NCBI GenBank assembly: GCA_964485445.1
Contig: CAZAJJ010000006.1
Span: 3,321-67,320, forward strand
DNA: 64,000 nucleotides
Reading direction: 5' to 3'
Origin: an uncultured Candidatus Saccharibacteria bacterium
GTDB taxonomy: Bacteria > Patescibacteriota > Saccharimonadia > Saccharimonadales > Saccharimonadaceae
Notes under the pieces: generated by a model
What the model was told of the DNA's origin: nothing
What the model saw: the letters and a program-made list of their open reading frames with translations, nothing else
Database searches by the model: none
Program-made: the position numbers and the translations under genes
Part shown: positions 15,655 through 49,351 of the stretch, piece after piece
Numbering within the stretch: the stretch's first letter is position 1
Layout of the letters: every line of letters begins with the position of its first letter

Positions 15655-16566
15655 ATGGCAAGTCCCAAGCCAAGTAAAGACCAGAAGGCGAAAAAGCCTG
15701 CTGAGAAACCTGAAAAGAAAGCAGTTGTTGAAACCACTTCTGCCGTAGTGGCCAACGATGAACCTTCGTTGAAGGGCTTTTTTGCGCGCAAATGCGACAA
15801 AGATGAAAACGTGATGACGATTTTCAAGACTCCAAAGATTTGGGGAGCTTTGATCGGTGAGGCGATCGGCACGATGTTAATCACGATGTTAATGCTGACG
15901 TTGGGCGTGCAGCCGCTTTATTTTGTTTTAGCAACTGTCGGTGTTTATGTTGCAGTGGTGGCACTCTCGGGCGCACATCTTAATCCATTAATTACAGCAG
16001 GGATGATGGCGACGCGACGAGTTTCGGCGATTCGAGGCGTTTTATATATGCTGGCGCAAGTGCTCGGTGCGTGGGTTGGCTTGATTATCGTAAATTCGTT
16101 CCGAATTGGTAGCGGTTCATCGTATGAATTGCCGATGATGGTAGAAATTGCCGGTGAAAGCTTCTGGATGGTGGCGCTAGTCGAGTTGATGGGTGCGATG
16201 ATCTTAGCATTTTGTTTTGCTCGTGCAATCCGCTATGCCCGCAGAAGCCCTTTGGCTTTTGGCATGACGATTGCTAGTGCAGTGACTTTGATTACGATTT
16301 TTGGAATTGTGATCACTCAAAGTTACTTCGGCTTCACTGGAACTGCGTTCATGTATAATCCGGCGATTGCTTTGATGTATCAAATTCTGCCAACTGCAGT
16401 AGATGGACTCGGTGAGTTTGCCAGCCTAGCTGGAATGGCCTTGGCAGGTTATGTAATCTTCCCAGTGATCGGCGGGATTCTCGGATTCTTCATTTCTGAA
16501 CTTGCAACTCGCTTGGCTGGTAAGGGTTACGGCTATACTGATTATGACTGCGAGCAAGAAGGTTAG
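15655..16566 (+). CDS. MIP-family channel (aquaporin/glycerol-facilitator-like)
   Basis: Six TM segments with HLNPLIT and YNPAIAL half-helix boxes. AAGGAGG SD. TGTGATATAAT -10 at 15612-15620. Confidence 0.8.
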   Translation: MASPKPSKDQKAKKPAEKPEKKAVVETTSAVVANDEPSLKGFFARKCDKDENVMTIFKTPKIWGALIGEAIGTMLITMLMLTLGVQPLYFVLATVGVYVAVVALSGAHLNPLITAGMMATRRVSAIRGVLYMLAQVLGAWVGLIIVNSFRIGSGSSYELPMMVEIAGESFWMVALVELMGAMILAFCFARAIRYARRSPLAFGMTIASAVTLITIFGIVITQSYFGFTGTAFMYNPAIALMYQILPTAVDGLGEFASLAGMALAGYVIFPVIGGILGFFISELATRLAGKGYGYTDYDCEQEG

Positions 16567-16584
16567 ACTCAGTTAGCATTCACG

Positions 16585-16621
16585 AAATAGCGCTTTTGGT
16601 TTCCAAAGGTGCTATTTTTGT
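16585..16621 (+). terminator. Rho-independent terminator after the MIP gene (overlaps next promoter)
   Basis: 15-bp stem aaatagcgcttttgg/ccaaaggtgctattt (two G-U pairs) plus T-run. Confidence 0.65.
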
Positions 16622-16629
16622 GCTATAAT
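16601..16629 (+). promoter_or_regulatory. Promoter (TTCCAA-N17-TGCTATAAT) for the LtaS-like gene
   Basis: -35 at 16601-16606, -10 at 16624-16629. ATG 16639 is 9 nt downstream. Confidence 0.55.
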
Positions 16630-16638
16630 AAGAATTGT

Positions 16639-18558
16639 ATGAAGAAATCCCTGCAGAGACGTGGCGTTCCAGCAATAGTGCGACTGCTTTTAGCGGTGAT
16701 TTTTCTGGTGGGAGTTTCAATCTTCTGCACCTGGTTTATTCTGTGGCGACAGCAGATGGCTGATACGACGAAAACTTGGGAGTTTATTAACGAAAATCCG
16801 CGAATATTTTGGTATAGTAGTTTGCTGATTTTTCTGATGGTTGCAGCGGTGTCGGCGGCAGTTTGGGGTGTGTTTTTAGGATCGGGGATTTGTTTCGGGA
16901 TTTTTAGCGTTATAACTTATATTCATATGCAAAAATTTCAGTTTCGGGCGGCGCCGCTGTTACCGGAAGATTTTGCGATGGCCGACCAGGCGGGAGGACT
17001 GATAAACTTCGTGGATATTTGGGGGATTGTACGGTTAGTAGTGGGAGTAATATTTATTATTGTAGGGGCGATCTTCTTAGAATACAGCGCACGGCGGATT
17101 TTCGGGCGAAAAAATATTAAACAACTGCCGTGGTGGGAACGTTTTTCGATGATTCCGAGGGTGAGTTTGACACTAGTAGCGCTGGTGGGATTTATCTTAG
17201 CGGCGGATCCGATTGTGCGACGAAATGAGGAGACGGCTTTCGGGATTCCGTGGCTAGGAGTTGAGTTTGAGGCTTGGAATCAAACTTCAAATTATGAATG
17301 GAATGGCTTCGTGATTGGTTTTCTATATAATTTAGGGCGAGCAAGTGTTGATGAACCAAAAGACTATAATGAAGAGCGGATTGCAGAGATAGCTAAGCAT
17401 TATCAAGCAAAAAAGGAGGAGGACGACGCTAATAGAGAAGACCTAGATAAAGTAGTTGATAATTTGATTATTATTTTGGACGAAACTTTTTATGATCCGG
17501 AACTTTTGGATAAATATTATCCACACACTGGCGGGGATCCGCTGCCAAATCTACGAGAAATTTTTAAGAAATATCCGAGTGGGTATATGTACTCACCGGA
17601 GTATGGCGGAGGCACGGCGAATGTTGAGTTTGAAGTGATGACGGGATTGTCAAATTATTGGGCGAATACAACGCCATATGTAGAAATAGTGCCAAAACTG
17701 ACAGGACTAACTAGCGCAGTAAGCATTGCAAAAGATGCAGGATTTAAGGCGACAGCAATTCATGCTAGTAATGGTTCAATGTATAAGCGGAATTTAGTAT
17801 ATCCGAAGTTGGGGTATGATGTGTTTTACGATAGCTCAACAATGAAACATACAGATCGCGAAAATGGGATTTCTTGGTATATTTCTGATGAGGCAGTATA
17901 TAAGGAAATTTTAGATGTACTGAAGGAAGATGACGATAAAAAGATGATTGGTGTGGCAACGATGCAAAATCATACGCCGTATATTACGGCGTGGTATGAG
18001 GATATTCAGTTTTGGGTGTCAAGCGAAAAATATCGTGATGATTTGCTGTATAATATTCAAAGTTTGCATAACTCGGATAAATATTTGGGTGAGTTTTTGG
18101 CGGAATTAGACAAGTTGGAAGAAAAGACGGCAGTACTATGGTTCGGGGATCATGCGGCAGCGCTGCTCGATGACTATATCTTGTCGGATGATAAAAGCGA
18201 ACGTGATTTGGCGCATTTGACTCCATTCTTTATTTATACAAACTTTGATACGGAAGGACTCTTCACAGAGGAGGAGGTGAAGAAAATGAATGCGGAGACT
18301 GGTTTTACTTTACCGACTAAGGGTGTAGATTTGCCAATTACTTCGCCGAATTGTTTGTCGAATGAATTATATGATATTTTGGGGATCAAAAAGCCGAGTT
18401 TATATTATTTGGTGAGCGAGGTATGCGCTGAGACGCCAATTTTGACACGAGCGTACTACGAGAGTGGGATTGCAGGAGAGGTTTCCGAAGCGCTAAAGGA
18501 TTACGAGTTGGTAAATTATGATATATTGAATGGAAAATACTATTGGCCAGAAAAATAG
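16639..18558 (+). CDS. LTA-synthase/sulfatase-family membrane enzyme (LtaS-like)
   Basis: N-terminal TM helices plus an extracellular alkaline-phosphatase-superfamily domain (ILDETF, TMQNHTPY, WFGDHAAAL). GTG 16609 lies upstream of the -10, so ATG 16639 is preferred. Confidence 0.8.
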   Translation: MKKSLQRRGVPAIVRLLLAVIFLVGVSIFCTWFILWRQQMADTTKTWEFINENPRIFWYSSLLIFLMVAAVSAAVWGVFLGSGICFGIFSVITYIHMQKFQFRAAPLLPEDFAMADQAGGLINFVDIWGIVRLVVGVIFIIVGAIFLEYSARRIFGRKNIKQLPWWERFSMIPRVSLTLVALVGFILAADPIVRRNEETAFGIPWLGVEFEAWNQTSNYEWNGFVIGFLYNLGRASVDEPKDYNEERIAEIAKHYQAKKEEDDANREDLDKVVDNLIIILDETFYDPELLDKYYPHTGGDPLPNLREIFKKYPSGYMYSPEYGGGTANVEFEVMTGLSNYWANTTPYVEIVPKLTGLTSAVSIAKDAGFKATAIHASNGSMYKRNLVYPKLGYDVFYDSSTMKHTDRENGISWYISDEAVYKEILDVLKEDDDKKMIGVATMQNHTPYITAWYEDIQFWVSSEKYRDDLLYNIQSLHNSDKYLGEFLAELDKLEEKTAVLWFGDHAAALLDDYILSDDKSERDLAHLTPFFIYTNFDTEGLFTEEEVKKMNAETGFTLPTKGVDLPITSPNCLSNELYDILGIKKPSLYYLVSEVCAETPILTRAYYESGIAGEVSEALKDYELVNYDILNGKYYWPEK

Positions 18559-39778: not shown

Positions 39779-41779
39779 CTAATTCCGGGCGGCGCGCTTA
39801 CGCTTGATCGGATCGAGTTCGCGCTTGCGGAGACGGAGAGATTTCGGTGTGACTTCGAGAAGCTCGTCGTCAAGCAAGAAATCAATGCACTGCTCAAGCG
39901 AATATTGGGTATGCGGAGTGAGTTGGATGGCTCCGTCACTAGCATGCGTGCGCATGTTGGTGAGTTGTTTTTCCTTGCAGATGTTAATATCAAGGTCATC
40001 TTTTTTGTTAGAAAGGCCAACAATCATGCCCTGATAAACCGGGACGCCGGGCGGAATGAAGAGGATGCCGCGGGCTTGGGCGGCGTCGAGGGCGTAGGCA
40101 GTAGAAGTGCCGGGCTCAAAGGCGATCAAAGCACCGTTTCGCTCGGGGCGATACTTCCCTTCGACGGGACGATAACCGCTAGGAATTGAAGACATAATGG
40201 CGGTGCCTTTGGTGGCGGTGAGGAGATTATTGCGGAGGCCAATGAGAGCCGCGGTAGTGATATCGTAAGTAAAGCGAGTGCTGCCGGAACCGGTGATTTC
40301 TTGGCTCCTGAGATCGGCTTTGCGGATGCCGAGTTCTTGGCTGACGGCACCAACAAATTCAGGCTCAACTTCGACCGTAAGTTCTTCGACTGGCTCGCAT
40401 TTTTGGCCATCAATTTCTTTATAGACCACTTCAGGGCGACCAGTTTCCAGTTCGTAGCCTTCACGGCGCATGGTTTCAATCAGAACAGAAAGATGAAGTT
40501 CGCCACGGCCAGAAACTTTATAACCGAGACCGTCGGGAACGATTTTGAGAGCGATATTAGTTTCGAGTTCGCGCTCGAGGCGTTCGGCGATTTGGCGCGA
40601 AGTCGTAAATTCGCCTTCTTGACCTTTGAGCGGAGAGGTATTCGGGCCAATATAAATACTCAAGGTTGGCGGTTCGAGTTCGATAGTTGGGAGGGCTTCG
40701 GGATGGTCACCGGTGGCGATGGTGTCGCCGATGTTGGCTTGGGCGATACCCGAGATAGCGACGATGTCGCCGGCTTCGGCAGAATCGACTTCTTCGCGGC
40801 CGAGGCCTTTGTAGGTGAAGATTCGATCTATTTTACCAGTAATCCAAGTCACAGGGGAGACATCTTTGCGCTCGAGAGAACCACTCGCCAGCCCGTCTTC
40901 ACGGGTGTCTCCTTCTGCTCGCTCAGCTTTCGCTCGCTTTATTCTCTCTTGCGCAAAGTCGTCTCCCCCGTCGCTTGCAATGCTAGTAGCTAAGTTAGAT
41001 CCATTCTCCGCCCCAGCAAATTCGCGATCTTCGACCACAGCATCGCTATGCCCGATACGTACGGATTCGCCTTTTTTGAGGCGGCCGCGGAAGATTTTGC
41101 CGATGGCGTATTTGCCGAGATAATTATCAGCAGCGAGAGCGGCAACGAGGAGTTGGGCGCCCTTGCTGGAGTCGGTATCAACACGCGGAGCGGGGATTTC
41201 ATCGATGATGGCGTCAAAAATGACGTGCAAATCAGGGTCAAGATCAGTCGTTTTGCCAGCGCGACCGTCACGAGCGATGGCGTAATAGATCGGATAATTC
41301 AGTTGAGACTCGTCGGTCGCCAGTTCGAGGAAGAGGTCGGCAATTTCACTTTCGACTTCAGGAATGCGAGCGGCGGGTTTGTCGATTTTGTTAATAATAA
41401 CGATGGGCTTAAGTTTCAGGGCGAGAGCCTTTTGGAGGACGAATTTAGTCTGGGGCATGGGGCCTTCTTGGGCATCGACCACGAGAATAACGCCGTCAGC
41501 CATATTCAAAGTGCGCTCGACTTCGCCGGAAAAGTCGGCGTGACCCGGGGTGTCGATAATGTTGATTTTATGGTCTTTGTAAAAAACAGAAGTTTGTTTA
41601 GCGGTGATAGTGATGCCGCGCTCATGTTCCTGGTCCATGGAGTCCATAATGAGGGTCTGGGACATTTCGGCTTGATTGTCACGGAAGGTATGAGATTGCT
41701 TCAAAAGCGCATCGACGAGGGTAGTTTTGCCATGATCGACGTGCGCAATGATAGCGATGTTACGAATGTTATTAGTCAT
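39779..41779 (-). CDS. typA: Translational GTPase TypA/BipA with ~50-aa insert
   Basis: AHVDHGKTT, DTPGHADF and NKID G-motifs. BipA-type C-terminus. The insert (AGAENGSN...EDGLASGSLERK) carries the hairpin repeat. Confidence 0.9.
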   Translation of the reverse strand: MTNNIRNIAIIAHVDHGKTTLVDALLKQSHTFRDNQAEMSQTLIMDSMDQEHERGITITAKQTSVFYKDHKINIIDTPGHADFSGEVERTLNMADGVILVVDAQEGPMPQTKFVLQKALALKLKPIVIINKIDKPAARIPEVESEIADLFLELATDESQLNYPIYYAIARDGRAGKTTDLDPDLHVIFDAIIDEIPAPRVDTDSSKGAQLLVAALAADNYLGKYAIGKIFRGRLKKGESVRIGHSDAVVEDREFAGAENGSNLATSIASDGGDDFAQERIKRAKAERAEGDTREDGLASGSLERKDVSPVTWITGKIDRIFTYKGLGREEVDSAEAGDIVAISGIAQANIGDTIATGDHPEALPTIELEPPTLSIYIGPNTSPLKGQEGEFTTSRQIAERLERELETNIALKIVPDGLGYKVSGRGELHLSVLIETMRREGYELETGRPEVVYKEIDGQKCEPVEELTVEVEPEFVGAVSQELGIRKADLRSQEITGSGSTRFTYDITTAALIGLRNNLLTATKGTAIMSSIPSGYRPVEGKYRPERNGALIAFEPGTSTAYALDAAQARGILFIPPGVPVYQGMIVGLSNKKDDLDINICKEKQLTNMRTHASDGAIQLTPHTQYSLEQCIDFLLDDELLEVTPKSLRLRKRELDPIKRKRAARN
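40871..40909. repeat. In-frame hairpin repeat in typA
   Basis: ctcgagagaaccactcgccagcccgtcttcacgggtgtc. The 5' part matches tatD 38169-38197. The hairpin cagcccgt-cttc-acgggtg matches intergenic 31541-31565. Confidence 0.65.
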
Positions 41780-42031: not shown

Positions 42032-42121
42032 GCGCCCGTGGTGGAATTTGGTAGACACGCTACCTTGAGGTGGTAGTGGCGATTTTAAGCTGTGCTAGTT
42101 CGAGTCTAGTCGGGCGCACCA
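42032..42121 (+). tRNA. tRNA-Leu (anticodon GAG), class II long variable arm, CCA encoded
   Basis: Acceptor gcgcccg/cgggcgc, anticodon stem ctacc/ggtag with loop ttGAGgt, 17-nt variable arm, T-arm gctag-ttcgagt-ctagt, discriminator A + CCA. 90 nt. Confidence 0.9.
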
Positions 42122-42126
42122 CACAA

Positions 42127-42149
42127 AAAGACCCCGTGGGGTTATTTTT
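42127..42149 (+). terminator. Terminator after tRNA-Leu
   Basis: Short hairpin accc-cgtg-gggt followed by tattttt. Confidence 0.5.
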
Positions 42150-42194
42150 GTAGGTATTCCTAAGATTATTTGATAGGCTCATATTCTTAAAAAA

Positions 42195-43205
42195 CTAGAA
42201 CTGACGAGAAGAAATATTTGTAAAATGGCTAAACATCCCAGAATTGAGCGATACACTAATTCTATCCATTAACATTGATACTTGATCAGCATCGATTCCT
42301 GCAACATCTAGAAACTCCTTGGCTTTCGCGTACTGCAGTTCGCCAGCAAGATATCCCAAATTAGCTGGTATGTTCTTATTCCTAGAAAAAATGATAACCC
42401 TAGCATCCGGGCTACGAAGGCGCTCCGCTACTAGTTGCCACCAAGTCTGATCCGTTTTGCCTAGAGACATACCGAAGATGCAGATAATATTAGCGTTCGC
42501 GATACGCTTTGCACAATCCTCATCCCGCAGGGTCATACTATTTTTATTCGCGATTGGTTTTATGAGTCTATGCTTTACTCTCTCATGCCTACCTATGTTG
42601 TCACAGCAAACAATTTGCGATGGATTATCCACGCCCAAAATCATATGCTCTTGCGTTGTACCATGTATGTGAGTAATCGAATTCAGGAAGGCATGACTGT
42701 GATTGCTGGAAATCGTCTCTATTGTACCACGCCAGTTATAAAGCCTTTCAAATGTGCTAGTGTAATTAAAGTTAATTACATCAATATTGGTAGGGCCGCC
42801 AATGCGAGCCCTTAGTTTATCGAATGGCGCTCTAGCTCCCCTTGCAAGGAAGAAGTCTGGAGACATGAGGTAATGTATTGCATCATTATCTGGGCGAGAA
42901 TTAGAGGACATAACATTTTTTTGTTGTGAGTTAATGTATTTACCAAGTTCCAAAAGTATATCCATCCATAGCGAGAGATAATCCTCGTAATTTTTATCAG
43001 AAAAATTCTGAGCATATTTACCGAATGACACTTCAAAATCAGACCAGGCTTTATTGTTATTCTTAATTTTATCCAGAAAATTGCGCACATATGGTCGTTC
43101 ATCATTCGTGCGCATCGTGCCATAATATTCATAAAAATCGGTAAATTTCGTACGTAATCCAAGGTTTAGGTCGAAGCCATTGCCTATCATAAAAACGATA
43201 TTCAT
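42195..43205 (-). CDS. AbiH-like abortive-infection protein
   Basis: N-terminus MNIVFMIGNGFDLNLGLRTKFTDFYEYY matches the AbiH family signature (IGNGFDL..GL.T.Y.DF). 336 aa. Confidence 0.7.
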   Translation of the reverse strand: MNIVFMIGNGFDLNLGLRTKFTDFYEYYGTMRTNDERPYVRNFLDKIKNNNKAWSDFEVSFGKYAQNFSDKNYEDYLSLWMDILLELGKYINSQQKNVMSSNSRPDNDAIHYLMSPDFFLARGARAPFDKLRARIGGPTNIDVINFNYTSTFERLYNWRGTIETISSNHSHAFLNSITHIHGTTQEHMILGVDNPSQIVCCDNIGRHERVKHRLIKPIANKNSMTLRDEDCAKRIANANIICIFGMSLGKTDQTWWQLVAERLRSPDARVIIFSRNKNIPANLGYLAGELQYAKAKEFLDVAGIDADQVSMLMDRISVSLNSGMFSHFTNISSRQF

Positions 43206-43211
43206 GCTTCT

Positions 43212-43220
43212 ATTATACCA
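43212..43220 (-). promoter_or_regulatory. Extended -10 (TGGTATAAT) 6 nt from the abiH-like ATG
   Basis: attatacca at 43212-43220. ATG at 43205-43203. Confidence 0.5.
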
Positions 43221-43311
43221 CGAATATTAGCACTCTAGATCAAGATGTGCCAATGCATCCAGTTTTTCTATCTGTGATTACTTTAAAATATATGATACGC
43301 CTTTAATAGAG

Positions 43312-45846
43312 TTAGATTTCCGCCTCGATAATCTCATCTGCCTCACTACGTGTAACGACAGTGTCAAATAGACCAATATTCTCATCGCCATCGTGGGCGG
43401 AGCGTCCGCCAGCATATTCAAGCGAAGCATCTTCGAAGCGCCGAAATTGAGCGATGGCGGCATTAAGTTCGGTTTGGTTGAACACGCCCACTTCACACAT
43501 TTGATCGAATTCTCGGATTGTAAGTCCGGTTACCCTAGTAAAAAGTTCTGGCTCAAGATTACGAATAACGTCAATGAGAGCTTGCTCACGGTAATCAGTC
43601 AGATACATAAATACTGGGATGCGTGTTACGAATTGCAACAACTTTTCTCGCAGCATCTTCTTAAAACCTTGACGTTCCTTTTTCTCTGCCTTCTCTTCTT
43701 CGGTTTCTTCTTTGGTGGCTTCGCGTCCTTCTTCGGCACGTTTTTTCTTTGATTCGTGAACGGCTTTCTCTCGGCTAATTACTTTGGTGAGATCGTTTTT
43801 CAAATTACGAAAGCCTTCGATTTTCTCTAGTGCAGCCATAATCTCTGGATTATTCATTACTTTTTCTAGGATGGCGGTCGTCGTATCGACCAATTTGGCG
43901 GACTGCCAGCGACGAGCAAGCATTGTAGATGCCGTGCCATAAGTAGAGATGTCAAGGATTTCCGTGGCTTTAAGCGGTCGCATTTTCGCACCATCAAAAC
44001 ATAATACTGGCAAGAACTCGATAAACTCTTCCAGTCGTTTTTCTGGTCGTCTGGTATCGCTCGGGCTATCAAGCGTGCCACTATAATCGGCAATGAGTTT
44101 TAATGCACGACTAGGAGCAAAGTCCATCACATAGCAAATTGGCTTCATCACGTTGCGACGCATCGGATCGTCAGCATCTTTCATTACCCACGGACTTTGA
44201 GCACGAAAAGCAGTCTGGAAATAAGTTTCGGGAAACTCGATGTTACGCAAGAACAATACGCCACTCCAAGCCGGCACGGTTACGCCGGTAGTTAGTTTGC
44301 CACACGAGAGTGTAATCGTGGCGGTCGTTATACCATCTTTGACGGCTTCAATTACTGGATCTTTAGCATGTTTGCCACCAGGAGTATCATTACCAGCAGC
44401 ACGAATAATCTTGTAATTATTAAAGAACGGGTCGAGTCGCAGTAATCTTTCCATCGCACGACACGCCGCTACATTAGGTAAAAACCAAAACGTATGCCTG
44501 AGAGCAGACAATAAACGAGCATCTTCATATGGCAGAGCGGGGGCGTGGTAGTCAAACTTGTTTTCCACTTCAATTTGTAGGTCGGAACCGTGTAGAATAT
44601 TAAGGAATTTCTGCACGTCTTTTTCGAGCTCGAACACATAGTCGCCATTAACATTTTTCTTGGCCCGGAAAAACTTATTCAGATCAAATTCATTAAACTC
44701 GCCCTTCATTGCCACTTCACGTAAGTTTTCTGGCATTTGATAAGTTAACATTACGATCTGCGGTAGCTCGCGGTAAGGATTATCGCCTTCGCCATTCCAG
44801 TGAAACTTTGCACGTTGTTCATCGGCATAAGTCCAGTTAAAGATCTGATCTTCGTTAAATTCACCATTTGCAATTGCCTTAAATGGCGTGCCAGAAAGAT
44901 AGAGGTATCCGCGAACTTTTAACGGCATCGTTTCCTCAATCTCATTTAGGTCGTCCGGCATTGCCATTTCGCCTTCTTTTTTATCGTCCTCGTCATGGAG
45001 TTCTTTGGCAGCATCTCGCCACGCCCCGAAGTGATATTCATCTACAAATAAGCAGTCCCATTCGATTTCTCGCATTTTCTTGTGGCGGTCTTTGAGCGTG
45101 CCATCGGTGTTTTTACAAAGCACATCTTGATAACTAGCAAACCAAACGACTGGCTTACTCTCGTCGATTCCGGCTTCTTCCCAAGACTGCAAGCCTTCGA
45201 TAAACTGCCAACCTTCAAAATCTTGATGTCCATAGAGGTCGGTTTTCCACTCTTGTTCTACTCCCGGCTTATAAGTTAATACTAAAATCCTATCCCAACC
45301 CATTTTCTTCGCCAATTGATAAGCGGTAAAAGTTTTACCGAAACGCATTTTGGCATTCCAGAGAAAACGCGGAGCATCTTTCGTTTCTTGCAAACCTTCA
45401 GGCAGTAAATGTTTCTCAAAATATTCCGAGGTCTGCTTAACCGCCAATTCCTGCTCTGGTCGTATTTTGAAATTCTTGCGAGTAGCATTGCCCTTTTCTG
45501 GTGTGCCGTCCTTAATGTTCTGGATGATAGATTTGACGGTTTCTAGGTCGGTATCATAAAACTCACCAGCCAGTTGCTGCTTACCGAAGTTCTTTAGCCA
45601 TTTATGGACGAGATGGTCGGTAAAATATTCACCATCTTTTGTGATTGCCGGTTCGTAATGCAGAATTTTGTATTGCTTGTTTGGGGTTTTAACCAAGCCT
45701 TCCTTAATTCTGGCTTCCACGGCATCAAAGTCGTTGCCAGACTTCATAACACGCTCGGTGTAACCGATTTTGAGACCAGGTTGCCCAGTGGCTTCGTAGA
45801 CATAAATTTGTGGACGCTTGGCGTAGCGGAGGGGGCTACTTTTCAT
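43312..45846 (-). CDS. T5orf172/GIY-YIG-like N-terminal domain fused to an SF2 (ResIII/DEAD-like) helicase; putative restriction/effector subunit
   Basis: N-terminus IYVYEATGQPGLKIGYT...EFYDTDLETV. Helicase motifs MRFGKTFT (I), FVDEYHFG (II), LSGTPFK (III). Long helical, K/E-rich C-terminal region. Confidence 0.75.
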   Translation of the reverse strand: MKSSPLRYAKRPQIYVYEATGQPGLKIGYTERVMKSGNDFDAVEARIKEGLVKTPNKQYKILHYEPAITKDGEYFTDHLVHKWLKNFGKQQLAGEFYDTDLETVKSIIQNIKDGTPEKGNATRKNFKIRPEQELAVKQTSEYFEKHLLPEGLQETKDAPRFLWNAKMRFGKTFTAYQLAKKMGWDRILVLTYKPGVEQEWKTDLYGHQDFEGWQFIEGLQSWEEAGIDESKPVVWFASYQDVLCKNTDGTLKDRHKKMREIEWDCLFVDEYHFGAWRDAAKELHDEDDKKEGEMAMPDDLNEIEETMPLKVRGYLYLSGTPFKAIANGEFNEDQIFNWTYADEQRAKFHWNGEGDNPYRELPQIVMLTYQMPENLREVAMKGEFNEFDLNKFFRAKKNVNGDYVFELEKDVQKFLNILHGSDLQIEVENKFDYHAPALPYEDARLLSALRHTFWFLPNVAACRAMERLLRLDPFFNNYKIIRAAGNDTPGGKHAKDPVIEAVKDGITTATITLSCGKLTTGVTVPAWSGVLFLRNIEFPETYFQTAFRAQSPWVMKDADDPMRRNVMKPICYVMDFAPSRALKLIADYSGTLDSPSDTRRPEKRLEEFIEFLPVLCFDGAKMRPLKATEILDISTYGTASTMLARRWQSAKLVDTTTAILEKVMNNPEIMAALEKIEGFRNLKNDLTKVISREKAVHESKKKRAEEGREATKEETEEEKAEKKERQGFKKMLREKLLQFVTRIPVFMYLTDYREQALIDVIRNLEPELFTRVTGLTIREFDQMCEVGVFNQTELNAAIAQFRRFEDASLEYAGGRSAHDGDENIGLFDTVVTRSEADEIIEAEI

Positions 45847-46381
45847 TCACCTCTCCATTATTCAGCCCACAGTTCAGTTTTATACGTTTAATCTCATTAA
45901 TAATTTCCTCGCTTTTTCCTGGCATAAATTTATCTAAGATCAGGGTTATTAAGGGCTGTATTAGATCTAGGACCACAACATACCCATTTGAACAAAAATG
46001 TATACGAGAATCAATTGCGTCAAGGTATGATTCTGGCTCATGATTTGGTATATTTCTATAATGCCCCTTCATGTTTAATATACGATCATAAGCGAGGTTT
46101 GTTATATTATATATGTCAGCTAATCGCGCTTCTTGTTCAGATGAGTTTTTAATTGCAATCATAAAACGATACGTTGCTCCCTCAATATCTTCAAATTGCG
46201 GAACGAGCACCGACAGTTCCTCTTCTACGTCGCCATAACTAATATAGAAATCTGAGACTAATTGATTCAGCATCCTCTTAAAAGACTCAAGGAAGTTTTC
46301 AAGAAGCATATCTTTTGCTTCATTGAAACTATAATCTATATTCTTTAATAATTCTGCGTACCCCATTGGAAGTGTATCCAT
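45836..46381 (-). CDS. Hypothetical 181-aa protein within the R-M-like operon
   Basis: 11-nt overlap with the downstream helicase gene and a 2-nt gap from the upstream MTase gene. No recognisable motif. Confidence 0.6.
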   Translation of the reverse strand: MDTLPMGYAELLKNIDYSFNEAKDMLLENFLESFKRMLNQLVSDFYISYGDVEEELSVLVPQFEDIEGATYRFMIAIKNSSEQEARLADIYNITNLAYDRILNMKGHYRNIPNHEPESYLDAIDSRIHFCSNGYVVVLDLIQPLITLILDKFMPGKSEEIINEIKRIKLNCGLNNGEVNEK

Positions 46382-46383
46382 AA

Positions 46384-47952
46384 CTACTCCATCTCCTTTA
46401 CCATTTGTTTAATAAAATTTTGTTCATCCTTATCTATAAAATAGCGTTTATATAACTTCTCGTCAGTCCAGATTTCCGTCATAGGTAATAGCGGAACGAA
46501 CGAATAGACTTTACTGGAGGCGTGCTGTGTATTCTTTTGGAGGGAGACGAGGAAGCGGAAAAACCTTGTGCGTATATATGCGGCGTAATTATTCGCTTGG
46601 TCGAGCGAATCGAATACACCAGCGACAACATAGGTAAATGTGCAAACGCTGCCAGGTTCGACAACTATTGGTTTTCCGATAACTTGCCACGGTTTCTTGC
46701 CAGCTCCGCCGTATGCCTCACTAACTAACACCTTATACTTATCAATCCACTGCTTGTTTGTTTGTGCTAGCGATCTTTGAATGTATCCAGTAGCTTTATT
46801 GGCATAAATTTTTATCTTATCTGGATTATTGATCTGATCAAAGTCCTTAAAATTGGTCGCAAAATTAAATGGGTTTATCCCCGACACAATGGTATCCACC
46901 GTCTTATCGTGCAGCCTACTCACCTTTTCAAGAATTTTGACAGCCTGATTGTATCGAACAAAAATATCATATGAATTGAGTGGACGTTCCATCGTTGGTA
47001 GTTCATTGCCGCCAGAAATGGTGTGAACTTCACAATTACCATTGTGATTTGCATCCCAAATGAAATACATCACACCGCCTTCGATCGATACTCCCGGGAA
47101 ACAATCTTCTGCATTCGGATAATCATACAAAACTTTAATATGCTTATCGTTTAACATTGTTTTTCTAAAATCTCCCAGACCCATACCGCCACTAAACCAA
47201 CGAGACGGGATAATAAACGCTATATATGTAGGCTTTAACCTTTTCGCCTGCTCTATGAAAAGATGGTAAATCGGGGCAGCCTGAGCCCCGTGTCCGCCAG
47301 TATTTAACTGGTAGGGTGGGTTGCCGACAATCACGTCGAATTTCATGTTTTTAGCCTCCTCTGGCGTTAAATGTATAAAGTTATATGCGTGGCGTTCCAA
47401 AGTCTCGTCTCGATCTAGTTCGCTATTTTCAGCGTTGCCACAGAAAATACACGAGCCATTCTTGTAAGTGTGCGGGCGATTATCGTAGGAAATATTGCCA
47501 TTCTCGCTAGTGAAGCCAGCGATAGATTTTTCGCCACTAGCATCCTTGGAGGTATAGAGGCTGCGGCGGCTCATCAGAGCGGTTAAATTGGTAATAGCAA
47601 TGCCGTAGAGCATATTCTGGAAGATATGATGTCGACGATCTTCTTCGTCCGGAAATTCGTCTCGTAGTCCTTCCATTAAACGCACGGCAATTTGGCGGAG
47701 AAAAATACCAGTCTTACACGCAGGATCGAGCCATTTTAAGTTTTTGTTGTGCCAAACCTCTTCTGGTAATAAATCCAAAACCTTATTTGCAAGTTCTGGC
47801 GGCGTAAATACTTCATCGTTGGACAGATTGGCAATGCAATCCAGAATGTCTGGCGTGTGCCTTTGGTTGATTAAGTTTTGCAATAGTGTAGAGTTATAGC
47901 CAAGGTTCGTTATGGCTTGTGCATCGTTCTGATCAGATTTTTCGTTATTCAT
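46384..47952 (-). CDS. N6-adenine DNA methyltransferase (gamma-class, Eco57I-like family)
   Basis: EVFTPPELANKVL (motif X), WLDPACKTGIFL (motif I), FDVIVGNPPYQ (motif IV). C-terminal target-recognition-like region. Confidence 0.85.
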   Translation of the reverse strand: MNNEKSDQNDAQAITNLGYNSTLLQNLINQRHTPDILDCIANLSNDEVFTPPELANKVLDLLPEEVWHNKNLKWLDPACKTGIFLRQIAVRLMEGLRDEFPDEEDRRHHIFQNMLYGIAITNLTALMSRRSLYTSKDASGEKSIAGFTSENGNISYDNRPHTYKNGSCIFCGNAENSELDRDETLERHAYNFIHLTPEEAKNMKFDVIVGNPPYQLNTGGHGAQAAPIYHLFIEQAKRLKPTYIAFIIPSRWFSGGMGLGDFRKTMLNDKHIKVLYDYPNAEDCFPGVSIEGGVMYFIWDANHNGNCEVHTISGGNELPTMERPLNSYDIFVRYNQAVKILEKVSRLHDKTVDTIVSGINPFNFATNFKDFDQINNPDKIKIYANKATGYIQRSLAQTNKQWIDKYKVLVSEAYGGAGKKPWQVIGKPIVVEPGSVCTFTYVVAGVFDSLDQANNYAAYIRTRFFRFLVSLQKNTQHASSKVYSFVPLLPMTEIWTDEKLYKRYFIDKDEQNFIKQMVKEME

Positions 47953-48641
47953 ATTTTCTCATCTCCAAATAAACTTTCCTGTCGTTTTTGCTTTACCTTC
48001 TCCGGCGGAGCAAAAGTATTTTTATCTGGGATTTTAATGGGCTGCATTTCCTCGAAACGCACTGGTGGCATTTCCGTTATAACTTTGTCGATGCTATTTT
48101 CCATATCAGTAAGAGCATAAACTCGACGCTTAAACCTGCCTTTTACTGGGGTTGAGTATTCGACAAAATACACCAGTTCTTTGCCGTTTAGCATATCGCC
48201 AACAATCAAGTTAGTTCGCAAGATTTCATCCATTGCCAGAAGAAAACCTTTACTAGATTTCTTTGGCAAATACTCAAAAACTACGCCGGTCAGGCGTTTG
48301 CGGCATTCCGTGATATTATCTTCGGCAATATCGACACCATAAATCGTAGACAAAACTTTCAGGACAGAAAACTCGCGGTTTTTGTGATGCCACTCAATTT
48401 TATCTTGTTTGAGATGATCGAGGCGTTGGCGTAAAATCGCTTCCAAAAAGTTGCCATTACCGCAGGCAGGCTCGAGAAAACGCCAATAGCGGTTTGAAGT
48501 CGCCCCAGTAAGTGCGAGAATATTATTCACTTCTCGCGGCTGCGTAAAAACTTCACCTCGGTCTCTAACCCTAGAACGAGATTTTATGCCAACAGGCGTT
48601 AAACCGGTATTCTTATTGACTTCTTTCATTATAGCGACCAT
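47949..48641 (-). CDS. Methyltransferase-like protein with SAM-binding motif I but no (D/N/S)PP(Y/F/W) catalytic motif
   Basis: GEVFTQPREV (motif X), FLEPACGNGNFL (motif I), IYGVDI. The position of motif IV reads NLIVGDMLNG. ATGA overlap with the downstream MTase gene. Confidence 0.65.
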   Translation of the reverse strand: MVAIMKEVNKNTGLTPVGIKSRSRVRDRGEVFTQPREVNNILALTGATSNRYWRFLEPACGNGNFLEAILRQRLDHLKQDKIEWHHKNREFSVLKVLSTIYGVDIAEDNITECRKRLTGVVFEYLPKKSSKGFLLAMDEILRTNLIVGDMLNGKELVYFVEYSTPVKGRFKRRVYALTDMENSIDKVITEMPPVRFEEMQPIKIPDKNTFAPPEKVKQKRQESLFGDEKI

Positions 48642-48892
48642 TGTTAGTGGTCGCTAATAAATAAAAAAGCGACCACATTCTGATCGCTACAATCATCAAT
48701 TCAAACCTCTTCAAAAAGCTTAAATTCTGCGAATGTGATCGCATCTTTTCGCTTTTTGAAGAACTGAATTGTTCTTCTGTTGAATGATAATTGTAGCAAT
48801 TTCATTATATCACAAGTTTAACCTATTGACTAGGGTATATAGAGTATAATATGCCAAGCTATGCTATAATATACTAAAGAAAGTTACAAAAA

Positions 48893-49351
48893 ATGTCGAA
48901 AAATAATAACTATAGCGATGGCTGGCAAGATGGATATTGGTTTGGCAGCGGATCAGCATATGACAGAGGCTACGAAGAAGGCAAACAAGCCGAGCGAAGC
49001 CGCATTAAGCGTGCAATAGATGGCGACTCTTCGGCAAGCGAAGCGTCAACTTTGGGTTCGATGGTTGGCGGATCGGTTATTTTAATACTTCTCGGGTGGT
49101 GTTTTATCGGACTGATTATGTTCTTATTCTGGGTTGGTGGCGAAAGCGGCAGCTGGTGGTTTCCGTGGATTTGGCGAATTGCGTTTTGGTGCGGAATTGG
49201 TTTTATAGTCGTAATGAGCATTGCTGGCGTGATTATGGCGATTATTGAACATAAAGAGATTAAATCTCCAGAAAAGTCAATAGGTGATCCGAATGCACCG
49301 TGGTATAAGAAATATCCGCCGGCGGATGTAGTGAAGAAGGAAGACGAATAG
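48893..49351 (+). CDS. Hypothetical membrane protein (152 aa)
   Basis: Three hydrophobic segrents rich in W/F/G. TGCTATAAT at 48862-48870 upstream. Confidence 0.55.
   Translation: MSKNNNYSDGWQDGYWFGSGSAYDRGYEEGKQAERSRIKRAIDGDSSASEASTLGSMVGGSVILILLGWCFIGLIMFLFWVGGESGSWWFPWIWRIAFWCGIGFIVVMSIAGVIMAIIEHKEIKSPEKSIGDPNAPWYKKYPPADVVKKEDE

Follow-up and report, generated by a model that had tools for sequence, protein, structure and literature searches.

Clusters in which a helicase and a T5orf172/GIY-YIG protein accompany an MmeI-like methyltransferase were noted by Morgan et al. in 2009, together with 'large single polypeptides' uniting nuclease, helicase and methyltransferase (PMC2731913), and Sisakova et al. 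mention a broader group of Type ISP/IIL relatives that rely on helicases and on nucleases of the GIY-YIG kind (PMC3553950). The closest described architecture to the one examined here, judged from descriptions and not from sequences, is DnmA(YeeA)–YeeB–YeeC of Bacillus subtilis, homologues of which alter phage sensitivity in Vibrio crassostreae (PMC9973331). Here we present an analysis of five minus-strand genes, termed g1 to g5, in a 64-kb stretch of DNA from an uncultured Candidatus Saccharibacteria bacterium (the whole of which is hereafter referred to as the window). The initial annotation had proposed these genes as a single candidate composite or new anti-phage system. We find instead that they probably represent two independent defence units: a three-gene, ATP-dependent module akin to restriction–modification (R-M), made up of g1, g2 and g4 and carrying g3 as a passenger, and an unrelated AbiH gene (g5). 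On sequence evidence the g1–g2–g4 module is best read as a widespread, motor-driven R-M-like variant of the Type I/ISP kind that has been catalogued only generically, as Type II or IIG; a literature search found no publication characterising the family. The region is thus defence-related, as first suggested, but it is neither one five-gene system nor categorically new.

A three-gene core conserved across phyla

The five open reading frames (ORFs), all with the sizes originally given, fill the stretch between positions 42122 and 48892:

47949–48641, minus strand: g1, 230 amino acids (aa), half-methyltransferase
46384–47952, minus strand: g2, 522 aa, methyltransferase
45836–46381, minus strand: g3, 181 aa, passenger
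43312–45846, minus strand: g4, 844 aa, nuclease–motor protein
42195–43205, minus strand: g5, 336 aa, AbiH

Their junctions are also as initially described, with a 4-nt overlap between g1 and g2, a 2-nt gap between g2 and g3 and an 11-nt overlap between g3 and g4; the spacer from g4 to the AbiH gene is 106 nt. The composition of the region does become more AT-rich directly after tRNA-Leu(GAG), the G+C content being 41.5% over 42122–48892 and 47.5% in the rest of the window. This is the minimum-G+C stretch of 6.8 kb in the window, the lowest non-overlapping stretch having 43.6%; the drop is genuine but modest.

To assess conservation, an alignment of g4 homologues was scanned against the GTDB species, each represented by one genome. 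Relatives of g4 are encoded in at least 597 of these genomes, and the 80 best loci were analysed; clustered at 90% identity, the proteins that match g4 form more than 8000 clusters. Recurrence in these loci was measured twice, by tblastn with the five window proteins and by an independent all-against-all clustering of 1136 ORFs, and both analyses agree: 79 loci contain g4, 72 contain g2 and 65 contain g1, and the next commonest family is found in 7. Every one of the 62 loci that hold all three genes shows them collinear and on one strand, as g1–g2–g4, and the counterparts of the window genes are 43–97% identical to them. In 58 of 63 loci g1 directly adjoins or overlaps g2, and gaps of 0.3–0.6 kb are seen in the remaining five. 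Nearly all loci without g1 or g2 run into a contig end; L074, where upstream DNA is present and g1 is absent, is the sole exception seen. Neither g3 nor AbiH occurs in any of the 80 loci. The five-gene cluster is therefore a three-gene core with two unrelated additions.

The 80 loci come from Saccharibacteria, Bacteroidota, Melainabacteria/Cyanobacteria, Campylobacterota, Pasteurellaceae, Actinobacteria, Elusimicrobia and an archaeal (Woesearchaeota) metagenome-assembled genome (MAG), the top-scoring locus being that of a Candidatus Saccharibacteria MAG (97% identity). Between the window and locus L001, g4 is 97% identical at the protein level and 87% at the nucleotide level, as expected with selection preserving the protein. 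Database labels on the parts of the module are confined to 'DEAD/DEAH helicase', 'GIY-YIG nuclease', 'Eco57I methylase domain' and 'hypothetical', and the source names on g4 clusters to 'hypothetical protein'.

These distributions bear directly on the initial view that g1, g2, g3, g4 and AbiH make up one composite, novel anti-phage system of interdependent parts. Such a system would accommodate the tight packing and translational coupling of g1–g4, the position of AbiH 106 nt further on along the same strand with no terminator-like site between, and the low-G+C patch common to all five genes. It is nevertheless highly improbable, given that g1, g2 and g4 travel together and are the only families to recur in more than seven loci, that g3 and AbiH never accompany them, that g2 and g4 abut in the nearest relatives, in different genomic contexts, and that AbiH is a recognised single-gene family.

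The methyltransferase g2 and its catalytically dead paralogue g1

The g2 protein matches Pfam Eco57I (PF07669; 2.4e-36) and carries GNPPYQ at residues 210–215, in keeping with its annotation as a gamma-class N6-adenine methyltransferase. The motifs follow each other in the order X (EVFTPP), I (LDPACKTGIFL) and IV (GNPPYQ). In PADLOC, g2 is matched by the MTase_II profile PDLC03375 (1.9e-51) and by PDLC03626 (1.8e-45), and its score against Pfam MmeI_Mtase is 23.9 bits, under the cutoff of 27. Over 66 homologues the first ~300 residues, with their motifs, are kept, and residues ~300–480 are variable. Locus L086, in which g4 is 96% identical to that of the window, displays the same division at short range: g2 is 90–100% identical in most of its N-terminal half and 37–53% in parts of its C-terminal half. 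Such a mosaic is typical of R-M enzymes whose target specificity is changing. By this pattern, g2 would be the modification and specificity subunit, with a C-terminal target-recognition domain at residues ~300–480.

Between the S-adenosylmethionine (SAM)-binding motifs and NPPY, g2 contains an insertion (residues ~150–195) with invariant H161, C168, C171 and H194 in 25 homologues from many phyla, which may be a small zinc-binding element; we know of no zinc-type element in the Eco57I or MmeI methyltransferase domains. In Haemophilus haemolyticus M19099 (L046, 8294–9811) the g2 homologue is present as two ORFs of 249 and 206 aa, with tblastn spanning the whole gene; this split may reflect a frameshift, a pseudogene or phase variation.

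The 230-aa g1 protein had been described as methyltransferase-like but lacking motif IV, which our searches bear out: methyltransferase profiles match g1 in their N-terminal part only (PADLOC MTase_II, 6.2e-11), and the protein has no NPPY. It is similar to g2 itself (BLASTP, 2e-5), and the g1 family as a whole is homologous to residues 45–134 of the g2 family (hhalign 97.5%, E 6e-12). Searched against the PDB, the g1 profile finds the methyltransferase domains of MmeI (5HR4, 6e-4) and of the Type I subunit HsdM (3UFB, 1e-3). Across phyla (66 sequences), g1 homologues carry motif X as GEVFT, motif I as FLEPACGxGNFL, motif II as YGxD..DN and motif III as GDxL, and the catalytic (D/N)PP(Y/F) motif is absent from the family in the same 66 sequences. 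Homologues of g1 number 3498; the 120 that are listed have zero Pfam domains, and any name they bear is 'hypothetical protein'. On this evidence g1, which lacks the catalytic motif, is paralogous to the N-terminal, SAM-binding half of g2. Its retained SAM motifs, its predicted inability to methylate and its presence in both split and fused forms of the module (see below) together point to an obligatory regulatory or structural subunit.

The nuclease–motor subunit g4

The 844-aa g4 protein had been annotated as a fusion of a T5orf172/GIY-YIG-like nuclease with a superfamily 2 (SF2) helicase. Its own T5orf172 match is marginal (Pfam, E 0.0013, 19.7 bits against a cutoff of 20), and the annotation is backed by its homologues, many of which lie above threshold for T5orf172 (PF10544), MUG113 (PF13455) and ResIII (PF04851), and by invariant motifs. 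Three regions are distinguished:

aa ~12–115: GIY-YIG/T5orf172 nuclease
aa ~125–640: two-lobed SF2 motor, with motif I GKT at 170–172, motif II DEYH at 269–272 and motif III SGTP at 318–321
aa ~640–844: helical C-terminal domain, which joins the motor to the methyltransferase in fused relatives

Invariance was read from 30 sequences of 51–78% identity. In the nuclease the invariant GIY-YIG-type residues are Y15, Y17, K26, G28, T30, R46 and E95; in the motor they comprise GKT, DEYH, G319, T320 and P321 (S318 is nearly invariant) and a motif VI-like Q544/R548/Q550. An AlphaFold2 model of g4 (predicted local distance difference test (pLDDT) 73.7, predicted TM-score (pTM) 0.59) begins with an alpha/beta domain, continues with two RecA-like lobes and ends in a long helical domain. 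Compared with the PDB by Foldseek, the model places the Snf2-family motors Chd1, ALC1 and SNF2h first (E about 1e-9), followed by ZorD of Zorya, RadD, HsdR and RapA, with EcoR124I HsdR at rank 20 (E 5.5e-8); these model-based matches fix the fold class of g4, not its family membership.

Two loci encode longer g4 homologues than the typical ~840 aa, of 1102 aa (L039, 3897–7205) and 923 aa (L078, 9917–12688), and the g1 homologues of L039 and L078 are likewise longer, at 336 and 280 aa.

Fused and plasmid-borne forms of the module

Relatives of the module were found by tblastn in about 85 plasmid records, and the family is carried on mobilisable and conjugative plasmids and lies in varying genomic contexts. 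On the Lactiplantibacillus plantarum plasmid LP2025_7, a single protein of 1417 aa (WP_217078730.1) is collinear first with residues 12–830 of g4 (1e-88) and then with residues 24–494 of g2 (2e-61), so that its domain order is nuclease, motor, helical linker, methyltransferase and recognition domain. The gene directly upstream belongs to the g1 family (E 5e-31 with a hidden Markov model (HMM) built from 66 sequences). The same two-gene layout, a g1 homologue followed by a fused protein, is found on the Enterococcus faecium plasmid pAT02-a and on a Bacillus cereus plasmid, where PGAP names the g1 homologues 'N-6 DNA methylase' (g1-HMM E 8e-53 and 4e-56). On pAT02-a (L083, NZ_CP097062.1) this fused version lies ~0.9 kb downstream of optrA, which confers oxazolidinone/phenicol resistance, including to linezolid; about 33 of the plasmid records with relatives are from Enterococcus.

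The PADLOC search also showed that the family had already been collected. The REBASE-derived profile PDLC03626 ('REase_MTase_IIG', 1359 positions) matches g4 over positions 180–809 (1.5e-34) and g2 over positions 862–1359 (1.8e-45). REBASE-derived collections thus already contain the fused form, if only under a generic label, which weakens the claim of novelty, and the 'IIG' label looks like a default annotation rather than a characterised mechanism.

The methyltransferase can be divided elsewhere as well. In the Treponema saccharophilum plasmid pTS1 (L085, 24–4416), a 344-aa 'Eco57I methylase', with the NPPY motif (MKFDFCIGNPPY) at its start, precedes a 1118-aa 'DEAD/DEAH helicase', and profile PDLC03375 (348 positions) covers only the NPPY and recognition-domain half of g2. 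Both indicate that the methyltransferase is evidently separable between its SAM-binding and catalytic halves, and such a split may have been the source of g1.

The Type ISP domain order of the fused relatives makes translocation followed by collision-dependent cutting the most economical model for the motor. Alternatively, the module could be an R-M system whose motor works as in Type III enzymes, by ATP-triggered one-dimensional sliding, or as in CglI and NgoAVII, by ATP-dependent long-range signalling with a cut near the site. A methyltransferase with its own recognition domain and no S subunit also describes Type III Mod; SF2-ATPase enzymes use several modes of communication (PMC5737866; PMC12707154 section 18), and the sequence and fold data do not separate these modes. 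We nevertheless regard this alternative as unlikely, because the nearest structural matches of g4 are double-strand DNA translocases (the Snf2 family and HsdR), the fused relatives copy the Type ISP order, and g2 is of the gamma class (Eco57I family) and does not have the beta-class Mod fold.

A variable cargo slot between g2 and g4

The g3 protein had been called unknown, and it indeed has zero matches in Pfam, PADLOC and NCBIfam. Its gene has the lowest G+C content of the region (35%). A search of 5.8 billion proteins returned only g3 itself, and an exhaustive HMMER scan of 1.84 billion representatives gave a single weak relative, P0297 (153 aa, E 1e-5, 28% identity). P0297, encoded on a metagenomic contig (L092, 3230–3691), adjoins genes for a CdiA_C toxin-domain protein and a VbhA antitoxin. 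These surroundings resemble a polymorphic-toxin or toxin–antitoxin locus, a hint that g3 could have a role in a conflict system.

The place that g3 occupies is itself variable. Adjacent g2 and g4 genes are found in 47 of 74 loci, and 27 of the 74 (36%) carry an insert of 0.4–3 kb between them. These inserts are mostly same-strand ORFs from many unrelated families:

YhcG/DUF1016 PD-(D/E)xK proteins (8 cases), Bro-N (4) and RhuM (2)
an OLD-like AAA_15 + TOPRIM protein, and a Schlafen AlbA_2 + HATPase_c_4 protein
helix–turn–helix and DUF433 genes, a 23S-rRNA-IVP-like protein and toxin–antitoxin genes
Tn5 and IS200 transposases, and several unknowns

Even close relatives differ in the state of the slot, which is empty in L086–L091, holds an unrelated 165-aa ORF in L001 and holds g3 in the window. 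In L086–L091 the g2 stop and g4 start overlap as TAATG (g4 being 96% identical to that of the window). When the window is aligned with L001 by blastn, only g4 and g2 + g1 align (87% identity), and the similarity ends no more than a few bases from the g2 stop and from the g4 start. Comparison of g3 with the similar-sized slot ORFs of L001 and L004 gives 15–23% identity, which leaves homology among them unsupported. The cargo starts just after the g2 stop, a few bases from the would-be start of g4, and uses an AAGGAG inside the end of g2; each cargo carries a fresh ribosome-binding site for g4 at its own 3' end. Genes of the DUF1016, RhuM, Fic and GIY-YIG families lie between the core genes of Type I loci (PMC9881135), and the families shared with those loci suggest the same kind of embedding at the g2/g4 junction.

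From its distribution, g3 appears to be an orphan passenger in a recurrent variable insertion slot, outside the module proper. A closer tie has a well-known precedent in the anticodon nuclease PrrC, which is embedded in the EcoprrI Type I locus. By analogy, g3 could be a second-line effector, an immunity protein or a regulatory protein that the complex restrains. The g3 start lies 2 nt downstream of the position of the g4 start in empty-slot relatives and uses the same AAGGAG, the 3' end of g3 supplies the g4 ribosome-binding site, cargo sits in exactly this slot in over a third of the loci and is enriched in nuclease and NTPase genes of defence type, the same families occur between Type I core genes, and the sole relative of g3 adjoins toxin and antitoxin genes. 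We consider such a tie possible but doubtful: g3 has no recognisable domain and essentially no homologues, no physical or functional link connects it to g2 or g4, and transposases occupy the slot too, so that it may be merely a permissive point of insertion.

A model for the module

In the model that we favour, g2 would recognise its target through the variable C-terminal domain and, with SAM, methylate adenine there; if the Eco57I, MmeI and Type ISP families are a guide, the target is perhaps asymmetric and modified on one strand. At unmodified sites g2 would recruit g4 into a complex, in which the Snf2/HsdR-like motor of g4 would travel along double-stranded DNA at the expense of ATP and foreign DNA would be cut by the N-terminal nuclease (GIY-YIG/T5orf172). 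The cut would probably fall away from the site, where the motor collides or stalls, as it does in enzymes of Type I and Type ISP. The g1 protein would act as an obligatory structural or allosteric partner of g2 and g4, and might couple SAM availability or methylation status to the licensing of the nuclease; this coupling, put forward as no more than a perhaps, is the least supported step. In the window g3 would be co-transcribed with the module and translationally coupled on both sides, as a passenger.

Several observations weigh against this reading. The profiles of g4 and g2 have no significant match among PDB sequences to any solved Type I, ISP or III enzyme, so the mechanistic analogy is one of fold class and architecture only. 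The TM-scores of the g4 Foldseek matches are low (about 0.3), as the model is flexible and multi-domain (pTM 0.59). For g1, the AlphaFold2 model (pLDDT 70) finds no match in the PDB by Foldseek better than E 0.19, and the role that we give to the protein is one that we infer. Finally, DnmA–YeeB–YeeC of B. subtilis neither protects against phage nor restricts transformation (PMC9973331), and such a gene set therefore need not be an active restriction system.

This last point raises the alternative that the module does not restrict at all, and that g2 is an epigenetic, 'orphan-like' methyltransferase with relic or repurposed partners, for which the analogous B. subtilis cluster of methyltransferase, helicase and T5orf172 protein is the model (PMC9973331). 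We consider this distinctly unlikely. The catalytic motifs of nuclease and motor are invariant across phyla, the three ORFs are full-length, and the module is carried on mobilisable and conjugative plasmids and in varying genomic contexts; the diversification of the recognition domain and the repeated capture of defence-type cargo fit an arms race. An active motor-driven module thus remains our preferred reading.

A further, tentative proposal, about which we have considerable doubt, is that the module represents a distinct, as yet unnamed class of ATP-dependent R-M systems, in which the dead SAM-binding g1 is an obligatory third subunit, licensing or restraining the nuclease–motor, and the g2/g4 junction is a dedicated slot for effector cargo. 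If g1 does sense SAM or methylation state, the system would be responsive to phage counter-defences that degrade SAM, and an effector slot, exemplified by the translational coupling of g3 to g4, would generalise the PrrC-in-Type-I arrangement. The module is common, being found among host-associated Saccharibacteria, gut Bacteroidales and Pasteurellaceae and also on Enterococcus plasmids. Its characterisation would add a GIY-YIG-based, three-component branch to the motor-driven Type I/ISP family and would explain the conserved dead methyltransferase partner. The module is also a possible barrier to be taken into account in the genetic transformation of Saccharibacteria, and its recurrent cargo slot offers a defined place in which to find new small defence or immunity genes.

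The AbiH gene and the surroundings of the locus

AbiH identity of g5 is clear: Pfam AbiH (PF14253) matches residues 4–273 over profile positions 1–259 of 260 (1.4e-39, 137.2 bits against a cutoff of 30.9), a full-length match to the family of this Lactococcus abortive-infection protein. The PADLOC AbiH match is partial (1.8e-7), only the first ~100 residues being covered. Judged by family and distribution, g5 appears to be a separate, single-gene abortive-infection determinant that shares the low-G+C patch with the module by chance. The gene had been described as separately promoted, for which we find one consensus match, in a promoter scan that yields no more sites than it does in shuffled sequence. 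The features around the five genes are as follows:

42032–42121, plus strand: tRNA-Leu(GAG), left edge of the low-G+C stretch
42130–42150, both strands: GC-rich hairpin GACCCCGTGGGGTT with T-runs on both strands (terminator scan of the plus strand, and reading of the sequence)
43253–43224, minus strand: promoter-like consensus match upstream of AbiH
48642–48832, minus strand: upstream region of the operon, with a promoter-like TAGTCA-17-TGnTATAAT at 48832–48804 (promoter scan)

The tRNA gene is the only one in the 64-kb window according to ARAGORN, and Rfam RF00005 agrees (48.7 bits). It is also the sole part of the window that megablast matched in E. coli genomes, so that an enterobacterial source is excluded. 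Its 3'-end pattern occurs only once in the window, with no direct repeat and no att-like site, and a search for an integrase at this tRNA-linked stretch found none. For these two reasons the 'island' of the initial annotation is defined by composition only: the low-G+C patch is real, and there is no sign of an integrated element in the form of an att repeat or an integrase. The hairpin at 42130–42150 is probably a bidirectional terminator, serving the tRNA on the plus strand and, as its sequence would allow, the AbiH/operon transcript on the minus strand.

Upstream of g1, the minus-strand leader (48625–48800, 176 nt) forms a very stable nested palindrome (minimum free energy −66.7 kcal/mol, z = −8.9 against shuffles), and a perfect 9-bp inverted repeat, GTGGTCGCT / AGCGACCAC, overlaps the first g1 ATG. 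The palindrome occurs once in the window, finds no match in Rfam and is not kept in L001; it could be a regulatory operator, an attenuator or the remnant of a small mobile element. At the right border of the patch, a plus-strand gene (48893–49351) encodes a 152-aa predicted membrane protein with Gly/Trp-rich hydrophobic segments and a weak, sub-threshold holin-like match (E 0.007). Exact-protein look-ups of g4, AbiH and this 152-aa neighbour gave no identical copies on record.

On the other side of the tRNA gene, the minus strand encodes a 666-aa TypA/BipA GTPase (39779–41779) that TIGR01394 (594 positions) matches in two stretches, which suggests an insertion of ~60–70 residues relative to the canonical protein. 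In L086, a gene for a KAP-family P-loop NTPase (15857–18478, 873 aa) lies ~3.3 kb downstream of the module on the opposite strand, and the small unknown genes between them include one with a weak Sf6-terminase-like match. This neighbourhood of the closest module relatives could be one more patch of defence or mobile-element genes.

Comparison with known systems

The initial annotation had judged the cluster a poor fit to the canonical R-M Types I, II, III and IV and to BREX and DISARM, with parts that resemble Type ISP or Type III-like systems, and the comparison upholds both points. For BREX and DISARM, PADLOC finds only weak PglX-like methyltransferase matches (1.5e-4 to 6e-4) and no further component, such as PglZ, BrxC and BrxL or DrmA, DrmB and DrmC, nor is any such gene conserved nearby in the 80 loci, and for MADS only weak matches at the level of the mad2/PglX methyltransferase. 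Type III is set apart by its beta-class Mod (N6_N4_Mtase) and its Res subunit with a C-terminal PD-(D/E)xK nuclease, as opposed to the gamma-class g2 and the N-terminal GIY-YIG nuclease of g4. With the Type IIG/IIL enzymes Eco57I and MmeI the module shares the methyltransferase family (PF07669). Characterised enzymes of these types lack an ATPase motor, and their PD-(D/E)xK nuclease is part of the methyltransferase chain; g2 has no nuclease domain, restriction being assigned to the separate ATPase–nuclease g4.

Like Type I systems, the module is inferred to be multi-subunit and ATP-dependent, has a restriction subunit that runs from an N-terminal nuclease through an SF2 motor to a helical C-terminal domain, and embeds some of the same cargo families, such as DUF1016/YhcG and RhuM (PMC9881135). 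No HsdS/Methylase_S match was found on any of the five genes, and none is conserved in the 80 loci. Specificity would lie in the C-terminal domain of g2 and not in a separate HsdS, the nuclease is GIY-YIG/T5orf172 where HsdR has PD-(D/E)xK, with no sequence-level match to HsdR, the methyltransferase belongs to the Eco57I family and not to HsdM, and g1 is additional.

The likeness to the Type ISP enzymes LlaGI and LlaBIII is closer. Here too the parts combined are nuclease, SF2 motor, linker, gamma-class adenine methyltransferase and recognition domain, without an S subunit, and the fused plasmid relatives (~1400 aa) have exactly the Type ISP domain order. However, the module is split into g2 and g4, with g3 between them in the window, and forms a single chain only in the fused relatives; its nuclease is GIY-YIG/T5orf172, as against the Mrr-type PD-(D/E)xK nuclease of Type ISP; and it has a third conserved subunit, g1, for which we know of no Type ISP counterpart. 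LlaBIII and LlaGI are presumably represented in the PDB, and neither the g4 profile nor the fused protein has a significant match to any chain there.

DnmA–YeeB–YeeC shares three activities with the module, those of a gamma-class methyltransferase that has a recognition domain of its own, of an SF2 helicase and of a nuclease of the T5orf172/GIY-YIG type, in a conserved operon found in defence-island-like contexts (PMC2731913, PMC9973331). There, however, the helicase and the nuclease are two proteins, with T5orf172 at the C terminus, whereas in the module they form one protein with the nuclease at its N terminus; the gene order is different, the module methyltransferase belongs to the Eco57I family (its MmeI_Mtase score being sub-threshold, as given above), and a half-methyltransferase like g1 is not described for that system. 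A restriction-enzyme specialist would recognise the kind of system that the module represents, and the dead methyltransferase subunit, the GIY-YIG/Snf2-like subunit and the cargo slot are concrete, testable features of it. As far as the descriptions go, the g1–g2–g4 family differs by its Eco57I-family methyltransferase, its N-terminal T5orf172–motor fusion, the dead half-methyltransferase g1 and the cargo slot between g2 and g4.

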